A DNA stretch of 64,000 bases from an uncultured Candidatus Saccharibacteria bacterium (lineage in GTDB: Bacteria; Patescibacteriota; Minisyncoccia; Phycocordibacterales; UBA1006): NCBI GenBank assembly GCA_964601935.1, contig CAZROP010000001.1:20127-84126 (forward strand). Reading direction: 5' to 3'. The translations under genes and the position numbers were made by a program. Shown here in pieces: positions 4,005 to 10,584 of the stretch. The notes under the pieces are model-generated. The model saw only the letters and a list, made by a program, of their open reading frames with translations. It was not told where the DNA came from and made no database searches. Numbering within the stretch: position 1 is the first letter of the stretch; each line of letters opens with the position of its first letter.

Positions 4005-4337
4005 TTATTTATTGAGATACGTAATTGTTAATTGAAGACACATCGCAAATGTTCCCCAGAGAAGATATGGAATGTTGGCGTAAACGACCCAACGGAGTTC
4101 GGGCACACTGTTCCACACTGCAGAGAGTGCCCAGATGAGTGTTCCGACGACGAGCACGATGTCTACTGCAGCGAGAAGATTATTTTTCAAACCAAATTGA
4201 ATTGGAGTGAAAGCGAAGTTGAAAATTAGGTTGAGAATAAAAGGCAAAGCCACCACCCACGAAATCTCTTTGGTGAAAACCTTGTAAAAAACAGTGCCGA
4301 AAGACACGGCAATAATCGCATACAACACCGTCCACAC
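4005..4337 (-). CDS. TspO/MBR-like tryptophan-rich membrane protein, possibly N-terminally truncated
   Basis: Trp-rich TM helices ('WALSAVWNSVPELRWVVYANIPYLLWGTFA') resemble the C-terminal three helices of TspO. Only 110 aa against about 150-160 aa for typical TspO. Confidence 0.35.
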   Translation of the reverse strand: MWTVLYAIIAVSFGTVFYKVFTKEISWVVALPFILNLIFNFAFTPIQFGLKNNLLAAVDIVLVVGTLIWALSAVWNSVPELRWVVYANIPYLLWGTFAMCLQLTITYLNK

Positions 4338-4661
4338 CGGCCCAAAAAGCCAGCTCGGTGGCGCTCATGTTGGTTTAATTAATTGTGAATACCAGTTGTA
4401 TGTATTCATATATTTATCTTAACACTTTTCTAACAAAAATATTCCTACCCCTTATTCCCTTAAGGGGAAACGCAGGTAAAGTACTGCCCTTGTTAGGCAG
4501 GTGAATTGATTCCGATACTAAATTGTCTCTGCGGAGGATCTGGGTTAAGTGCCCACAGGTAAATCCTTGTAAGGGTATTCTAGCACCTTTTGGTTGGATC
4601 AATTTAGGTAAGTGGGTCAGGGGTAGTAAATCCAGCTATTTTCATTATTATAGATAATATT

Positions 4662-5873
4662 ATGGATACTCAACAGCTAGAAAGCAATAATTACTCAAAG
4701 AATAAATCAACAGAAAAGACATACGTTGGTAAGGAGCTCAGAGTAAAAAATGCAGATGGCTCTACTTCAGAAAAGAGATATGTGACAAAAGTATTTGATA
4801 TCGAGGATTTTCAAGAATACTATAAAGATTTAAAAAACAAAGGAATCTTAAAAGTTTTGAGAGAGGGAGAAAGACAAGAAGTTGTAGCAATTGTAGATAA
4901 AGAAGAGAGAAGTTTTTCTTTACGAATTCAGAGGTTTACAAAGGAAACTGGTATGCCTCACTCCCAATCATTTAGTTTCCATAGCGGAGCACTTATAAAA
5001 CTTATTGAGTTTATTGATTCACTTGGCTTTATTGATTTCAGCAACAAAAGCTATTTCAGTTTACATGACACAGAGATTAAGAAACAAAAACAATTCTGGC
5101 TAAATAATACAGAGGTGCTCCAATACATTGAAAGATTCGATTCAAGTTTGTTGAAAAAGATCTTTGAAAAGATTCAAGATGAAAAAAAGCTGAAAATAAT
5201 CCTTGATTCTCTTTCTAGTGTTGAAATTGAACATCTTGAAGCATCAATAAAGCAAGCAGCGTATAAAACAGCCCTTGAAGATCTAAAGAGCATGATTAGT
5301 TTTGAGCAGGATAAAACAAAGAGTATTGTTGAAGAAGTAAAAAAAGATGAACGACTTAATAAATATTCTGCAGGTCAACCAGAAAAAATTTTTCAGAATT
5401 GGATTGAAGCCAATTTATGGATATTTGGGATTGAATACTATAAAAAGCACAATTGGAGAATTATTGATTCAACTCCTAATGAAAATTCTGAGGCTGACTT
5501 AGTAATGGAGACAATGGATGGATACGTTGACCTAATAGAACTAAAACGGCCAAGGACAAAATCAGACAAAATATTATCTTATGACATTGATCATAAAAGT
5601 TTTTTCCCAGCCAGAGATCTTTCTTTAGCATTAGGTCAGTGTTTACATTATTTAAAAAAACTAGATGAGCAAAAAGTCACAATCGAAAAGAAAAATAGTA
5701 CGAAAGTGCTACGACCACGAGTAAAGTTAATAATTGGAAGAAGTGCTGATTTTGACTCAGATGAATATGATGCTTTGAGAATGATTAATTCAAATTTGAG
5801 TCATGTCCAAATTATTACTTACGATGACTTGGTAAAGAACGGGGAATTGATTCTTTCTTATTATAGAAAATAA
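4662..5873 (+). CDS. Shedu-like (DUF4263 / SduA family) candidate anti-phage nuclease: Lys/Glu-rich N-terminal region plus C-terminal RecB-like PD-(D/E)xK nuclease domain
   Basis: The C-terminal ~170 aa contain 'EADLVMETMDGYVDLIELKRP' (the D...ExK of PD-(D/E)xK). Downstream 'LALGQCLHY' gives the RecB-family QxxxY motif. The tail 'VQIITYDDLV' is typical of DUF4263. Protein is ~400 aa, Shedu-sized. An AT-rich -10-like element (tagataatat) lies just upstream. A tRNA-Ser gene is adjacent. Confidence 0.5.
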   Translation: MDTQQLESNNYSKNKSTEKTYVGKELRVKNADGSTSEKRYVTKVFDIEDFQEYYKDLKNKGILKVLREGERQEVVAIVDKEERSFSLRIQRFTKETGMPHSQSFSFHSGALIKLIEFIDSLGFIDFSNKSYFSLHDTEIKKQKQFWLNNTEVLQYIERFDSSLLKKIFEKIQDEKKLKIILDSLSSVEIEHLEASIKQAAYKTALEDLKSMISFEQDKTKSIVEEVKKDERLNKYSAGQPEKIFQNWIEANLWIFGIEYYKKHNWRIIDSTPNENSEADLVMETMDGYVDLIELKRPRTKSDKILSYDIDHKSFFPARDLSLALGQCLHYLKKLDEQKVTIEKKNSTKVLRPRVKLIIGRSADFDSDEYDALRMINSNLSHVQIITYDDLVKNGELILSYYRK

Positions 5874-5969
5874 GTCACGTCTTCAATCGCTGTTTTAAAA
5901 TTACAAAAACACGCAGAATGGAGCCGCGTGTTTTTGTAGTATTCGGGTCACTCCGATACTTAGCTCTAT

Positions 5970-6057
5970 TGGCGGAGACGATGGGATTCGAACCCATGGG
6001 GCTGTTACGCCCACCTCCTTAGCAAGGAGGCACAATCGGCCACTCTGACACGTCTCC
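5970..6057 (-). tRNA. tRNA-Ser (anticodon GCT)
   Basis: Reverse complement folds as a cloverleaf: GGAGACG acceptor, long variable arm, anticodon loop TTGCTAA, T-loop GGTTCGAATCC, 3' GCCA. Confidence 0.85.
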
Positions 6058-6145
6058 GTATACCCATCAGTATACATAATTTTGCCCAACCTGCACGCAG
6101 CCAGGCGCTACTAAAAATACTTACGAGGGGTATCTGGATGTAGGA

Positions 6146-6604
6146 TTATACTGCTGATTCTGCGAGGTCCTTTAGCTTCTGCAGAGCACGTGGCCACATT
6201 TCGCTGAACATAACGGAGTATTCTTCGTTGGAATCCATGTCTATGCGCACCTCTGTTGTGTCACCGTTATTGACGAAGGTATAATTCTCGAAAGCTGGTG
6301 TCCACTTTTTGACTTCATCACTGGTGGTGTCTTCGACCCCGTTTGCTATCATACCTAGATGTTCGATAGAGATAAATTCATACTGTCGGTTATCAGCGAT
6401 CCTGGCCACCATGCCACCTTCACCACTACCATCAGGATTAGGTCCGAGAAACAAAATCTTTGATCCCGGGCTCCAATCACCCTGATAATATGATCCTTCG
6501 TTAAAGGGTACAGTCCATTGTCGATACGTCTCGTCACCCAACATAGTGTTCCATACTGTCTCGACAGGCGCATCTATAGTAATTGTAAAATGTAGTTTTT
6601 CCAT
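6146..6604 (-). CDS. SRPBCC / AHSA1-like (Activator of Hsp90 ATPase homolog, START-like) domain protein
   Basis: 152 aa. The N-terminal 'HFTITIDAPVETVWNTM' pattern is typical of AHSA1/polyketide-cyclase-like SRPBCC proteins. Confidence 0.5.
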   Translation of the reverse strand: MEKLHFTITIDAPVETVWNTMLGDETYRQWTVPFNEGSYYQGDWSPGSKILFLGPNPDGSGEGGMVARIADNRQYEFISIEHLGMIANGVEDTTSDEVKKWTPAFENYTFVNNGDTTEVRIDMDSNEEYSVMFSEMWPRALQKLKDLAESAV

Positions 6605-6672
6605 ATAAATTTAGCGTTACAAGTAATATAGATCTAGTATATCATTACTCATCTCAAATTACCCGATTACCT

Positions 6673-7137
6673 CTAGAGAATCTCAGACCTTATGTGCTTC
6701 ATCTTTTTCCAATCAATCTCCTCTGTATTTCCTTGTGCATCAACGAAGAATAGATAAAGGTTTAGTTTATCCATTACATCAAAAGGTAACTTCTTAATAA
6801 TCATTTTTCTAAAAGACACCGGAAAGGCAATTCCATATTTGTAACCATACTTGTACGCTCGCTTGCCTTTGCGATGCATTCTGGTAATTATTTGACCAAG
6901 TGCAGAATTAAAACTACTACTTCTGCTACCCCCAGGACTTTTCACAATAGCAGAAGGATCTCCTTTTGCTTCTATTAACCAGTAACGAGAAAACTTATTA
7001 TTCCTTACTTTAATGTCAACGCCATGCTCCCACAATTCGGCACTCTGCAAAGATTTACTCCAGCCTTGTGCTTCGAGATACTGCACTACACACCTTTGCA
7101 CGAAGTCCTCTTTGATAATTTTAGCGGATTCTGACAT
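6673..7137 (-). CDS. Small PD-(D/E)xK nuclease-like hypothetical protein
   Basis: 154 aa. 'HGVDIKVRNNKFSRYWLIEAKGD' gives a D-x17-E-A-K restriction-endonuclease-like motif. No further family recognised. Confidence 0.35.
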   Translation of the reverse strand: MSESAKIIKEDFVQRCVVQYLEAQGWSKSLQSAELWEHGVDIKVRNNKFSRYWLIEAKGDPSAIVKSPGGSRSSSFNSALGQIITRMHRKGKRAYKYGYKYGIAFPVSFRKMIIKKLPFDVMDKLNLYLFFVDAQGNTEEIDWKKMKHIRSEIL

Positions 7138-7175
7138 GTGTTATCGAGTGATATATCTAAAACACTAAATCATGT

Positions 7176-7263
7176 TGGCGGAGGGAGCGAGATTCGAACT
7201 CGCGAAGAGTTTCCCCTTGCCGGTTTTCAAGACCGGTGCCTTCAACCACTCGGCCATCCCTCC
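7176..7263 (-). tRNA. tRNA-Ser (anticodon TGA)
   Basis: Reverse complement: GGAGGGA acceptor, D-loop AGTGGTTGA, anticodon loop CTTGAAA, long variable arm, T-loop GTTCGAATC, 3' GCCA. Confidence 0.85.
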
Positions 7264-7328
7264 ATCTGTGCCGTATTCGACAACGCAAAAAGTATACCAG
7301 ATTTTCCGAAATACGCTATACTAAAAAT

Positions 7329-8459
7329 ATGCGTATTATTGCTATTATATTTGCCCTGGCCCTCATAACTACGCCCTGCCTGACCTCTGCATCAGCTAAT
7401 ATAGAATATTTACGGGGTGTTATTATTTCAACTCAAGAAGACGTCAACGAACAGTCTATTAATGGAGATACTATATATCGTGCGCAGATCCAAACGCAAT
7501 CAGGAGTCATCGAGGCAGAAAACGAGCTCGGGATTCTGGAACCTGGAGACAGGGTCATCGTTAGAACAGAACAAGTCCCTAATTATGATGACGAGACTGC
7601 CGGAAGCTCGGAAACTGTTTACAGCATTTACGAACGTGACCGAATAATTCCGCTCATCGCGCTCGCTCTCGTGTTTGCAGGTGCGGTTATCAGCCTGGGC
7701 GTACGTCAGGGTCTGCGCGCACTATCTGCGCTGGCTGGTACATTATTCGTAATATTTGGTATATATATCCCCTCACTATTAGCTGGCTTCTCGCCTCTGA
7801 CCACCAGTATTATCATGGGGCTTCTGATTGCAGGGTGTGCTGTATTTATCACCCATGGATTCAAACGATCTTCTGCTGTTGCCTATGGTAGTACGGTACT
7901 GTCTGTTATCGTTGCTGTTATTATTGCAATGATTGCTATTCACGCATCAGGACTGACAGGTGCTACCAGTGACGAGGTTACATTTTTGGCTGCGACGAGC
8001 GTGCGCGCATTTGATTTTATCGGCATTATGATTGGTGGCGTTATCATTGCGATGCTCGGCGTACTAGATGATATCGCAATTACGCAGGTTGCGGTAGTGG
8101 AAGAATTAAAGCGATCAAAGCCTAACTCAACATTCACGGAATTGTATCGTGCTGCGCTACGGGTAGGGCGTGATCATGCAGGCGCGTTGGTGAATACATT
8201 AGTGCTGGCATATGCAGGAACATCTCTACCGCTGCTGTTATTGTTACAGTCTCAGAACCTGGATACATTCGTTGTGATTAACCAAGAACAATTTGCATTC
8301 GAGATCATCAGATCGCTATCGGGCAGTATCGGGCTCGTTGCATGTGTGCCTATCGCTACCCTACTGGCAATATACCTTACCAGACCCTGTGACCATAACC
8401 ACACGACTGATGGATGTCCACACTGTATGACAAAACTATCTAGCACAAACCAGAGTTAA
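7329..8459 (+). CDS. YibE/F-family membrane protein
   Basis: Signal/TM N-terminus, soluble N-terminal domain, then ~8 TM helices with Gly/Ala-rich helices (YibE/F-like). Start moved to the ATG at 7329 because the longer ORF runs into the tRNA. Confidence 0.5.
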   Translation: MRIIAIIFALALITTPCLTSASANIEYLRGVIISTQEDVNEQSINGDTIYRAQIQTQSGVIEAENELGILEPGDRVIVRTEQVPNYDDETAGSSETVYSIYERDRIIPLIALALVFAGAVISLGVRQGLRALSALAGTLFVIFGIYIPSLLAGFSPLTTSIIMGLLIAGCAVFITHGFKRSSAVAYGSTVLSVIVAVIIAMIAIHASGLTGATSDEVTFLAATSVRAFDFIGIMIGGVIIAMLGVLDDIAITQVAVVEELKRSKPNSTFTELYRAALRVGRDHAGALVNTLVLAYAGTSLPLLLLLQSQNLDTFVVINQEQFAFEIIRSLSGSIGLVACVPIATLLAIYLTRPCDHNHTTDGCPHCMTKLSSTNQS

Positions 8460-9640: not shown

Positions 9641-9943
9641 TTATTTTATGACTTGTCCGCTTGCTTTCGCTACGCGGACTTTTTTGCCACTCTCGACCAA
9701 AAATCCTACACGTGTCGGCTTGCCAGACTTTGGATCTTTCAATGCCACATTTGATACATGGACAGGATATTCACGAGCAACGAGCTTTTTCTCATTTCCT
9801 ACGCGTCGTACTGCATGCTTGATATTAATGCCCGAAACTACAACACGATCTGCAGTAGGTAATACCTGGAGTACTTCGCCTGTTTGTTTTTTCTGTGACC
9901 CAGTCAGTATTACTACTGTGTCTCCTTTTTTGATTTTGTTCAT
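9641..9943 (-). CDS. rplX: 50S ribosomal protein L24
   Basis: KOW-motif protein 'MNKIKKGDTVVILTGSQKK'. Start taken at the internal Met, giving ~100 aa; the listed ORF is extended upstream. Confidence 0.85.
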   Translation of the reverse strand: MNKIKKGDTVVILTGSQKKQTGEVLQVLPTADRVVVSGINIKHAVRRVGNEKKLVAREYPVHVSNVALKDPKSGKPTRVGFLVESGKKVRVAKASGQVIK

Positions 9944-9959
9944 ATAGATTATATTTGGA

Positions 9960-10337
9960 CTACAGGACTTCAGGTGCCAATGACGCAATCTTGTTATAGC
10001 CTCGCTCCGACACTTCACGAGGAATAGGACCGAATACACGGGTACCACGAGGGTCACCCTTTCCATCAATGAGAACGATTGCGTTTTCATCGAATCGGAT
10101 ATAGGACCCATCAGGACGACGGAAGCTCGCCTTTTGGCGAACTACTACGCCTTTGTGTACTGTTCCTTTTTTAACTTGCTTGTTAGGTTCTGCGGTTTTA
10201 ATTGCAACAATTACCACATCCCCAATGTATGCATAGCGGCGTTTCGATGCACCTGGTACTTTGAATACCTGTGCTGTCGATCCACCACTGTTGTCAGCGA
10301 TGACAACTTTTGATCCGGCTTGCAACATATTAGACAA
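9960..10337 (-). CDS. rplN: 50S ribosomal protein L14
   Basis: 'MLQAGSKVVIADNSGG...' is typical of L14 (~122 aa). Confidence 0.9.
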   Translation of the reverse strand: MSNMLQAGSKVVIADNSGGSTAQVFKVPGASKRRYAYIGDVVIVAIKTAEPNKQVKKGTVHKGVVVRQKASFRRPDGSYIRFDENAIVLIDGKGDPRGTRVFGPIPREVSERGYNKIASLAPEVL

Positions 10338-10584
10338 CTACGCGGAAGGCAACTGTTTTTGCTACAGGTGCACATTCCTCGATTACTACTTTGCTGCCGA
10401 CCTTTGGCATTTCGCCTGCAACATGGGCTTTGTATTTCTTTGATACAGTATAGAACTTTCCGTACTTTGGATGTTTAACGAAGCGGTCAACTTTGACCAC
10501 TACCGTACTCATCATTTTGTCCGAAACCACTACACCTTCAAAACGTTTTTTATTTATTACTTTATCCATATTATTTTGCACCAA
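10330..10584 (-). CDS. rpsQ: 30S ribosomal protein S17
   Basis: 84 aa with 'FEGVVVSDKMMSTVVVKVDRFVKHPKYGK', the typical S17 OB fold. Confidence 0.85.
   Translation of the reverse strand: MVQNNMDKVINKKRFEGVVVSDKMMSTVVVKVDRFVKHPKYGKFYTVSKKYKAHVAGEMPKVGSKVVIEECAPVAKTVAFRVVV

Follow-up and report, generated by a model that had tools for sequence, protein, structure and literature searches.

An XisH-like nuclease gene within a tRNA-Ser insertion hotspot of a patescibacterial genome

How did a small nuclease-like gene come to lie between two tRNA-Ser genes, and does the interval that they enclose form a unit? The question arises at positions 5970-7264 of the window, by which we mean the whole stretch of 64,000 nucleotides analysed here, from a contig of an uncultured Candidatus Saccharibacteria bacterium. 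A first-pass annotation had described tRNA-Ser(gct) and tRNA-Ser(tga) on the same strand, with two small genes between them and a Shedu-like gene immediately outside, and had read the arrangement as a compact accessory islet at integration-prone tRNA genes. The layout is as described: the tRNA genes enclose just two sizeable open reading frames, both on the minus strand, and the gene directly outside the pair is SduA (Shedu). The region is also accessory and tied to insertion at tRNA genes. The interval is thus real, yet it is no self-contained islet, because the window holds no recombinase, because three copies of a tRNA-Ser trailer are present, two of them around the low-GC SduA gene, and because the AHSA1 gene is native in composition. 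It belongs to a tRNA-Ser insertion hotspot of ~2.8 kb (about 4478-7263), whose features, in minus-strand reading, are the following.

7176..7263, minus strand: tRNA-Ser(tga) (ARAGORN; Rfam tRNA 62.6 bits)
7162..7175, minus strand: T1, truncated trailer box (11 of 14 bases equal to the collinear box of the related locus L018)
6673..7137, minus strand: gene for the 154-aa XisH-like PD-(D/E)xK nuclease (catalytic E10, D41, E56, K58)
6605..6672, no strand: spacer of 68 nt separating AHSA1 from the nuclease gene (shuffle test for a recombinase remnant)
6146..6604, minus strand: gene for a 152-aa AHSA1/SRPBCC (YndB-like) protein (Pfam PF08327, E 8.6e-7)
5970..6057, minus strand: tRNA-Ser(gct), the second insertion point (ARAGORN; Rfam tRNA 49.3 bits)
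5938..5969, minus strand: T2, trailer after tRNA-Ser(gct) (exact sequence match in L018)
5897..5943, no strand: strong terminator hairpin lying between T2 and the 3' end of the convergent SduA gene (inverted repeat I14)
4662..5873, plus strand: SduA (Shedu) gene (Pfam SduA_C E 4e-18; PADLOC SduA E 6e-34)
4478..4545, minus strand: T3, third trailer copy, with core 4510-4534 and a variable hairpin (25-nt consensus match)
4005..4409, minus strand: TspO gene, the native flank bounding the hotspot (Pfam TspO_MBR E 7e-15)

An Rfam scan returned nothing beyond the two tRNAs. The 154-aa open reading frame with its 'HGVDIKV...LIEAKG' motif, which had been noticed as restriction-endonuclease-like, does carry a genuine PD-(D/E)xK signature and encodes a protein of the restriction-endonuclease fold. 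In an alignment of 91 family members no substitution occurs at D41, conservation is 90% or higher at E10, E56 and K58, and in the predicted structure (AF2 pLDDT 91.4) the E...D...(D/E)xK residues lie on an alpha-beta-beta-beta-alpha-beta core, the 154 residues making up a single domain. Judged from its sequence the protein is a putative nuclease with an intact catalytic site, from an uncharacterised family. Its gene is under strong purifying selection, and synonymous sites are saturated among the relatives. At 50% identity the family falls into 185 clusters in a set of 1.84 billion proteins, and it was found at 24 loci in a pattern-limited scan of 185,579 species genomes; a single-protein scan of viral contigs gave one locus.

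The closest known relative of the protein is XisH, the accessory protein of the large serine recombinase XisF in Anabaena. XisH (PF08814; PDB 2inb, 2okf), the excision-controlling factor of the fdxN element of Anabaena/Nostoc, is ~19% identical to the 154-aa protein, which has the XisH-type fold including the C-terminal extension, and in the structural ranking restriction enzymes come below XisH. The profile similarity is moderate, with E 0.02-0.03 against PDB sequences and an hhalign value of 80.8% against an XisH profile that is shallow, since the homologue search gave only sequences 88-100% identical to the query. The Pfam XisH model matches one of the 91 family members (E 0.018) and does not match the window protein at E <= 0.1. 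That XisF-mediated excision requires XisH has been known since 1997, and XisH/XisI pairs are widespread without XisF. Both XisH and XisI are needed for excision by XisF, XisH being endonuclease-like and XisI a directionality factor (PMC4853749, PMC4874684, PMC11249958, PMC3424549). The two systems differ, however, in their setting. Whereas xisH forms a tight operon with xisI, the window gene has AHSA1 downstream, and no XisI (PF08869) partner was found in the ~40 neighbouring proteins scanned at related loci. The hosts of the 154-aa family are Patescibacteria and not cyanobacteria, and its genes are placed at tRNA-Ser junctions with RM cargo instead of at developmentally excised nif/fdx elements; moreover, a sister clade of the family resides within RM, reverse-transcriptase and helicase operons, unlike XisH.

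A link with large serine recombinases comes from the relatives of the window copy. Within its clade the nuclease gene is the first gene of a module that runs from tRNA-Ser through a box-plus-hairpin trailer, a terminator and the nuclease gene to a convergent large serine recombinase gene and RM cargo, that is, Type I RM or DNA methyltransferases. At L015, L016 and L017, which encode 78-80% identical relatives of the window protein, a Resolvase+Recombinase+Zn_ribbon_recom gene converges on the nuclease gene with a gap of 2-3 nt or an overlap of 4 nt; at L040 the recombinase is one gene farther off, and L018 and L032 have kept recombinase remnants, the one in L018 being ~62 nt of the recombinase 3' end (significant, 0 of 1000 shuffles). 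All these loci form one clade with the window copy. The recombinases at the four to six linked loci are of one lineage (70-90% identity), so that the link has been observed independently few times. In the window, the spacer 6605..6672 occupies the position of the 3' end of the convergent recombinase gene in the relatives. A first alignment suggested a recombinase remnant within these 68 nt, but the shuffle test found none of significance there (31-719 of 1000 shuffles), and tblastn with the related recombinases gave nothing within the 64-kb window. For the window copy it is thus clade membership that suggests the recombinase link, and its nuclease gene is probably what remains of one end of a recombinase-borne element. 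The extent of such an element is not delimited, the far ends of the relatives' elements lying beyond the DNA covered.

Conservation of the same gene order across distant relatives had been named in advance as an argument against an accessory region. Distant genomes do show the succession of tRNA-Ser and the 154-aa gene (L016, L017, L018 and L040), but there it forms the end of a recombinase-borne element and is not core synteny. No genome is close enough for a true comparison with an empty site, even ribosomal protein L5 being a singleton at 90% identity, and a metagenome scan with YibE/F yielded one 2.9-kb contig, which supplies a tRNA-Ser(tga) flank and no wider context.

The trailer itself consists of a conserved box, AGACAATTTAKTATCGGA, plus a hairpin. 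In L016 and L040 this box comes after tRNA-Ser(tga), in L017 and L018 after tRNA-Ser(gct), and the trailer is conserved despite the saturation of synonymous sites. Its inner stem varies in sequence but keeps its pairing in L016, L017, L045 and T3, the four different inner stems being suggestive. In the window the 3' end of tRNA-Ser(tga) is the junction to the nuclease gene. T1, ACATGATTTAGTGT, directly follows the CCA end of this tRNA, agrees with the collinear box of L018, ACACAATTTAGTAT, as listed above, and lacks the hairpin and terminator present in relatives; since it is short, it is suggestive only as a trailer copy. At L039 the tRNA-Ser(tga), with one mismatch to that of the window, diverges right after CTCCCTCCGC and is followed by a terminator and no trailer. 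T2, ATAGAGCTAAGTATCGGAGTGACCCGAATACT, has a short hairpin (GTATCGG/CCGAATAC) and has TATCGGAGTGACCCGA in common with L018; it folds as a hairpin (83-nt stretch, z -5.5) before the terminator, which is made of a 14-bp stem and a U-run. T3, with the core CCGCAGAGACAATTTAGTATCGGAA, has the same orientation as T2 and differs by three mismatches from a 25-nt junction consensus derived from other genomes (0 of 100 shuffles), and its local alignments to the trailers of L016, L017 and L018 were equalled in none of 500 shuffles. Nineteen of its nucleotides, CCTCCGCAGAGACAATTTA, recur without a difference at L045, where they form the 3' end and trailer of a genuine tRNA-Ser(tga). Upstream of T3 stands a decayed tRNA acceptor-end fragment alone, and neither ARAGORN nor Rfam detected a tRNA there. 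At L045 the trailer follows tRNA-Ser and a different gene lies downstream; the trailer may be a structure that goes with the tRNA and not a site for the recombinase. When viral contigs were scanned with a trailer 17-mer, five of the six matches were chance occurrences inside coding sequence.

Direct repeats of tRNA 3' ends had been proposed as a sign of integration. None were found around the two-gene interval 6058-7175, but att-like repeats do surround SduA: T2 and T3 bracket this gene in the same orientation, T3 being the repeat of the tRNA 3' end and flank at the distal boundary. SduA is also the most atypical gene of the window (GC 31.7%, z -3.7), and we take it to be a separate foreign cassette that was inserted at tRNA-Ser(gct), between two trailer copies. 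The locus thus resembles known tRNA-linked islands in its insertion at a tRNA 3' end, in the partial tRNA 3'-end duplicate at a distal boundary (T3), in cargo composition that is clearly atypical for SduA, though mildly so for the 154-aa gene and native for AHSA1, and, in the relatives, in the recombinase that adjoins the junction. It differs from them in that this recombinase is of the large serine type instead of the usual tyrosine integrase, in that the repeats are diverged box-plus-hairpin versions rather than identical cores, and in that the window itself has no recombinase at the junction, whereas L015, L016, L017 and L040 have one.

Taken as a whole, the locus is in our opinion best explained, tentatively and with somewhat less than even confidence, as a tRNA-Ser insertion patch in which an XisH-like nuclease has been left from a serine-recombinase element. 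The patch would have been assembled through insertions at the 3' ends of the two tRNA-Ser genes, and recombinase and cargo would then have been lost from the window while the nuclease gene survived. The 154-aa protein would be a Mg2+-dependent DNA endonuclease, probably dimeric, and an accessory factor of the serine-recombinase element, as XisH is for XisF; the hairpin-containing junction may be where it acts, and its function would be valuable enough to outlast the loss of the recombinase. A bolder version, which we put forward as decidedly doubtful, is that the proteins of this family are solo XisH-type nucleases that need no XisI and cooperate directly with a large serine recombinase at an attachment site of box-plus-hairpin structure joined to tRNA-Ser 3' ends. 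They would then be nuclease-type cofactors of serine integrases or would control the direction in which these work, and in the sister clade they would have been recruited as trans-acting effectors at the ends of defence operons with RM, helicase and reverse-transcriptase genes.

The interest of the locus lies in a patescibacterial XisH-like family, distant from XisH and independent of it, whose genes have an attachment-like tRNA-Ser junction on one side and a large serine recombinase on the other. Such a family would be a second and simpler, XisI-less system for probing the function of XisH-class proteins. Genome engineering relies on large serine integrases as important tools, and cofactors for them are actively sought (PMC12286644). 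As to annotation, the analysis defines a family missing from Pfam, and the junction motif, box plus hairpin, marks hotspots with RM, Shedu and other cargo in reduced genomes.

But could the nuclease serve defence and its adjacency to recombinases reflect no more than shared residence in islands? The role of the family, recombination helper or defence effector, is one that we infer, and a stand-alone or trans-acting defence nuclease, a minimal restriction-like effector that is either Mrr/type IV-like or recruited by translocase-type systems, is the alternative that we take most seriously, unlikely as we consider it. Genes of the sister clade occupy the 3' end of operons of the Type I/III RM, reverse-transcriptase and helicase kinds, they are without the trailer, and no recombinase was found within 6-10 kb of them, except at L021 (one ~8 kb upstream); by its gene neighbourhood this setting points to a role in defence rather than recombination. 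In addition, the Mrr_cat (PF04471) and NOV_C models weakly match 23 and 20 of the 91 family members, respectively (best E 1e-5), and Mrr_cat type IV restriction endonucleases and NOV_C proteins share superfamily, catalytic motif and residence in defence islands with the family. These models leave the window protein itself unmatched, however, and its 154 residues contain neither the N-terminal DNA-recognition domain of Mrr-like enzymes nor a reader of DNA modification or any other domain for targeting. No gene is its constant partner, no homologue was found in the phage and plasmid collections, and the single PADLOC match (PDC-M02B, 13.7 bits over 29 residues) we take as noise. The Hachiman nuclease HamA (PDB 8vxy) is larger, at 245 aa, and 10% identical, and the window has no HamB-type partner and no PADLOC Hachiman match. 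Finally, it is XisH and not a restriction enzyme that is the top match by every method.

The constant company of gene and trailer invites yet another explanation, namely that of a selfish homing-type nuclease which recognises the trailer hairpin or the empty site and thereby promotes the spread or retention of its own locus. Within its clade the gene always adjoins the conserved box plus hairpin, typical targets of dimeric PD-(D/E)xK enzymes are palindromes or branched DNA, the distribution is sporadic alongside strong conservation, and several assemblies break at this junction. Against this, the trailer is intact beside the gene, the sister clade has none, and saturated dS is at odds with recent spread, so that we hold homing to be improbable.

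Slightly less probable still is the model of the first-pass annotation, in which the 154-aa gene and AHSA1 form a mobile islet between formerly adjacent tRNA-Ser genes, possibly in partnership with Shedu. Both tRNAs do serve as insertion points in relatives, and the GC content of the 154-aa gene is mildly low (z -1.6). The assignment of the other gene to AHSA1/SRPBCC was correct (PF08327, 29.7 bits against a cut-off of 22.1 bits), but with 44.9% GC (z +0.4) its composition is native, and it is an ordinary small gene. Its 3337 homologues at E <= 1e-10 spread across Patescibacteria and other phyla. Homologues elsewhere are found among small stress and detoxification genes, and at L041 and L043 no tRNA appears beside them in the called-gene lists, of which a tRNA scan is not part. 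With no repeats around the interval, a discrete islet is not upheld. As to Shedu, SduA adjoins the interval, and L017 also has an SduA gene downstream of its 154-aa-type gene. These are, however, the only two of about 29 family loci with SduA nearby, the two SduA proteins are only 25% identical over the C-terminal domain, and the SduA of the window has its own repeat-bracketed, compositionally distinct cassette, all of which makes a partnership unlikely. Shedu works as a single gene. Viral contigs scanned with SduA gave nothing.

Very improbable, lastly, is a housekeeping function of the protein in this reduced genome, in repair or in the resolution of Holliday junctions (Hjc/RecU-like), a resolvase-like enzyme having been among the first-pass suggestions: archaeal Hjc and UPF0102 (YraN) are likewise minimal E...D...ExK nucleases of about 120-150 aa, but the protein belongs to neither Hjc nor RecU by sequence or structure, XisH being clearly the better match, and its small family is sporadic rather than single-copy (one genome has two members, L016 and L028), with both flanks variable between genomes and the gene embedded in RM and recombinase islands.

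At the far side of the hotspot, a sequence after T3 (4397-4414) had looked like a relic start of the 154-aa gene (2 of 500 shuffles); what lies there is the TspO start codon, and the resemblance is due to chance. TspO is native in GC content, and it carries an in-frame TGA at 4365-4367.

The two tRNA-Ser genes are separated by 1118 nt holding two ORFs, both on the minus strand, and SduA lies alongside; this arrangement, described in the first-pass annotation, is borne out as written by ARAGORN, Rfam, ORF and Pfam calls. The other flank is formed by YibE/F and a ribosomal-protein operon.

Features of the tRNA-Ser locus in the window, in minus-strand order. T1, T2 and T3 are the window copies of the trailer, a conserved box with a hairpin after the tRNA-Ser 3' end; L numbers denote loci from other genomes or contigs.
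7263-7176, minus: tRNA-Ser(tga) (ARAGORN; Rfam agrees)
7175-7162: T1, truncated box ACATGATTTAGTGT, without hairpin or terminator
7137-6673, minus: 154-aa ORF (nuclease gene)
Between nuclease gene and AHSA1: 68-nt spacer
6604-6146, minus: AHSA1/SRPBCC protein, 152 aa (Pfam PF08327, E 8.6e-7, above the curated cut-off)
6057-5970, minus: tRNA-Ser(gct) (ARAGORN; Rfam agrees)
5969-5938: T2, with the 16-mer TATCGGAGTGACCCGA also found in L018
After T2: strong terminator hairpin
5873-4662, plus (opposite strand): Shedu SduA, flanking the interval
4545-4478: T3
After T3: small hairpin, then TspO

The 154-aa protein has no match in Pfam, NCBIfam, PHROGs or the PDB sequences, and a match at noise level only in PADLOC. 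Public data hold 342 homologues; the 120 listed share about 69-81% identity and belong, where named, to Colwellbacteria, Gracilibacteria, Nomurabacteria, Paceibacterota and other Patescibacteria. The family is small, since an exhaustive HMMER search of 1.84 billion proteins yielded only 185 clusters at 50% identity. Among 91 aligned sequences D41 never varies, and conservation reaches 90% or more at E10, G39, I42, E56, K58, G59, G81 and R86; this is the classical E...D...ExK set, with the active site intact. The AlphaFold2 model, of PD-(D/E)xK fold, is confident (pLDDT 91.4, pTM 0.87), and within clade 1 of the family (see below) purifying selection is evident (dN 0.05-0.19 with dS saturated; dN/dS about 0.03-0.05 where computable). 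Together, the homologues, conserved residues, model and dN/dS argue for an intact, strongly constrained predicted nuclease of a new family distantly related to XisH.

To excise the fdxN element, the large serine recombinase XisF depends on both XisH, which is endonuclease-like, and the directionality factor XisI, and XisHI pairs are also widespread without XisF (PMC3424549, PMC4874684, PMC4853749, PMC11249958). The 154-aa protein is folded like XisH and may work like it. However, the Pfam XisH model does not pick it up, family members brush Mrr_cat (23/91) or NOV_C (20/91) more often than XisH, and an xisI partner is missing, which counts against the analogy; the XisH profile used in hhalign was shallow. 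Because it fails both the sequence model and the xisI-partner test, we file the family as a solo XisH-like PD-(D/E)xK family of Patescibacteria, outside PF08814.

About 29 loci of the family were examined, and a neighbour-joining tree of those that share at least about 70% identity resolves two clades that match genomic context. In clade 1, to which the window copy belongs, a recurring module is found: the nuclease gene comes after tRNA-Ser(tga) (L016, L040) or tRNA-Ser(gct) (L017, L018), with a large serine recombinase of a single lineage downstream. The recombinase gene is convergent with and abuts the nuclease gene in L015, L016 and L017 (2-3 nt gap or 4-nt overlap), is one gene away in L040, and persists only as remnants in L018 and L032. 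Beyond it lies the cargo: Type I RM in L015, in L040 and, around an embedded SduA, in L017; DNA methyltransferases with a ParB-methylase in L016. The sequence covered stops short of the distal ends of these elements. In clade 2 the nuclease gene follows, at 0-12 nt, operons that differ widely in kind; their final gene encodes Type III Res (L010, L012/L023, L020, L027, L028), Type I HsdR or HsdS (L008, L021), RadC following a Type I system (L005), a reverse transcriptase (L025), a 1721-aa SF1 helicase-nuclease (L033) or, in one case, a T2SSE ATPase. Genes downstream vary throughout the family, one genome carries two copies (L016 and L028), and phage and plasmid collections contain no homologue; the gene is accessory, not housekeeping. 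L021 also encodes, at 1408-2442, a second serine-recombinase lineage (44% identical to that of L017) about 8 kb upstream of its HsdM-HsdS-nuclease operon (nuclease at 10001-10486); with the two genes at opposite cassette ends, this would be a circular permutation of the L017 layout.

The clade 1 junction is itself conserved. The CCGCCA end of the tRNA is followed by the box AGACAATTTA(G/T)TATCGGA and a hairpin, either short (GTATCGG/CCGARTAC; L018, L040, T2) or about 60 nt long (L016, L017, L032, L036), and then by a canonical terminator, the box TTTCATATATAAATAAT just ahead of the start codon, and the nuclease gene. The inner stem stays paired despite sequence change (CATTTGTC/GACGAATG in L016, CATTTAC/GTAAGTG in L017, CACTTGC/GCAAGTG in L045, CTGCC/GGCAG in T3), a covariation seen in few sequences. 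The trailer is under selection, because its box is nearly identical between genomes with saturated synonymous sites. One box is shared after two tRNA-Ser isoacceptors; all that stands before it in L032 and L036 is a fragment resembling a tRNA 3' end, and the tRNA-Ser(tga) of L039, the nearest available relative of that of the window (one mismatch), runs without it straight into a terminator. Between trailer and nuclease gene, L036 (1-4290) and L015 (1-2500) carry a 4-kb cassette of a Na/Ca exchanger and membrane proteins of 270 and 155 aa, and the hotspot therefore takes non-defence cargo too; direct repeats of about 45 nt, including the terminator hairpin, flank it in L036, and L015 has the right-hand copy only. 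Nor is the trailer strictly tied to the nuclease gene, since in L045 (35-2805, an IMG/VR contig) tRNA-Ser(tga), a T3-type trailer and a terminator lead instead into the gene of an SF1 helicase (AAA_30; at least 849 aa). We read the trailer as a structured sequence where insertions recur and as a usable marker of insertion hotspots in these genomes; it may be the attachment site of the recombinase, or it may have a role in tRNA processing or termination and simply be copied when insertions occur, or both may hold.

Several independent assemblies break off upstream of the 154-aa gene, at a distance of about 450 nt or less (contig starts of L001/L017, L004/L026, L029, L032 and L040), four of them within about 235 nt and, where the tRNA-Ser/trailer junction is present (L001/L017, L032, L040), at or near it, which suggests strain-level heterogeneity or repeats there. 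In L018, ARAGORN calls an unusual 'tRNA-Ser(act)' (9673-9760, minus), which lies 60 nt upstream of tRNA-Ser(gct) and on the other strand. A pseudo-tRNA at this hotspot, or a mistaken call there, may explain it.

Three trailer copies mark the window locus. The T3 core CCGCAGAGACAATTTAGTATCGGAA differs from the consensus of other genomes by 3 mismatches, reached by 0/100 shuffles, and its alignment to the L016, L017 and L018 trailers is matched by 0/500; 19 bases are identical between T3 and the 3' end plus trailer of the L045 tRNA-Ser(tga). ARAGORN and Rfam detect no tRNA at T3, and only a decayed acceptor-end fragment lies upstream. The interval 5970-7264 is one part of a tRNA-Ser insertion hotspot of about 2.8 kb, in which SduA forms a foreign cassette of its own, placed at tRNA-Ser(gct) and bracketed by T2 and T3. 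Base composition fits this picture. No gene of the window is more atypical than SduA (31.7% GC, z -3.7); the GC content of the nuclease gene is slightly low (38.3%, z -1.6) and that of AHSA1 is native (44.9%, z +0.4). AHSA1 homologues are plentiful (3337 at E <= 1e-10); at two loci in other Patescibacteria their neighbours are small genes for stress response and detoxification, and at both the list of called genes, the annotation consulted there, contains no tRNA.

For the window nuclease gene at tRNA-Ser(tga), the best reading is that it survives from a serine-recombinase element in which it was the gene next to the junction. It would once have had an adjoining recombinase, which was presumably lost together with the cargo; the same loss is visibly under way in L018 and L032. 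No related-lineage serine recombinase was found anywhere in the 64-kb window, and the 68-nt spacer holds no significant recombinase remnant. The protein would cleave DNA and serve the element as XisH serves XisF, an accessory role that we favour only tentatively, at a little below even chances. The main evidence counter to it is the position of clade 2 copies at operon ends after RM, helicase and reverse-transcriptase genes, which speaks for a defence effector; we consider this rather unlikely. A homing-type selfish nuclease is improbable, and slightly more doubtful still is the proposal of the first-pass annotation, a discrete islet or a partner of Shedu, set against a hotspot in which SduA forms its own cassette. 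A housekeeping resolvase is the least credible, the gene being accessory.

Two traits set the hotspot apart from the classical tRNA-linked islands that it resembles: the recombinase associated with it is of the large serine type, and its repeats are copies of a structured motif that have diverged. The finding holds no new principle; it offers a clean second system for testing what XisH-type nucleases do beside serine recombinases, a question long unclear.

L039 is the sole relative found (YibE/F 68% identical). There tRNA-Ser(tga) and YibE/F run in one direction, with genes for a ZIP-like transporter and a Fur-like regulator between them; in the window (7176-8459) the two are divergent and abut. 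The segment has undergone inversion or rearrangement. Unrelated to the hotspot, a 679-aa secreted or surface-type protein (47-2086, minus) has Gly/Ser/Thr-rich repetitive beta-helix-like repeats and seven consecutive Gly residues, and its C-terminus holds a peptidoglycan-binding-like domain. The TspO gene (4005-4409, minus; start ATG 4407-4409) has an in-frame TGA at 4365-4367, exactly at the conserved Trp of the TspO consensus motif 'KPsWxPPxW', and the listed 110-aa ORF is only the portion past it. TGA serves as stop codon in only 4/44 window genes, and the TspO gene may have acquired a nonsense mutation, be a pseudogene or be locally recoded.
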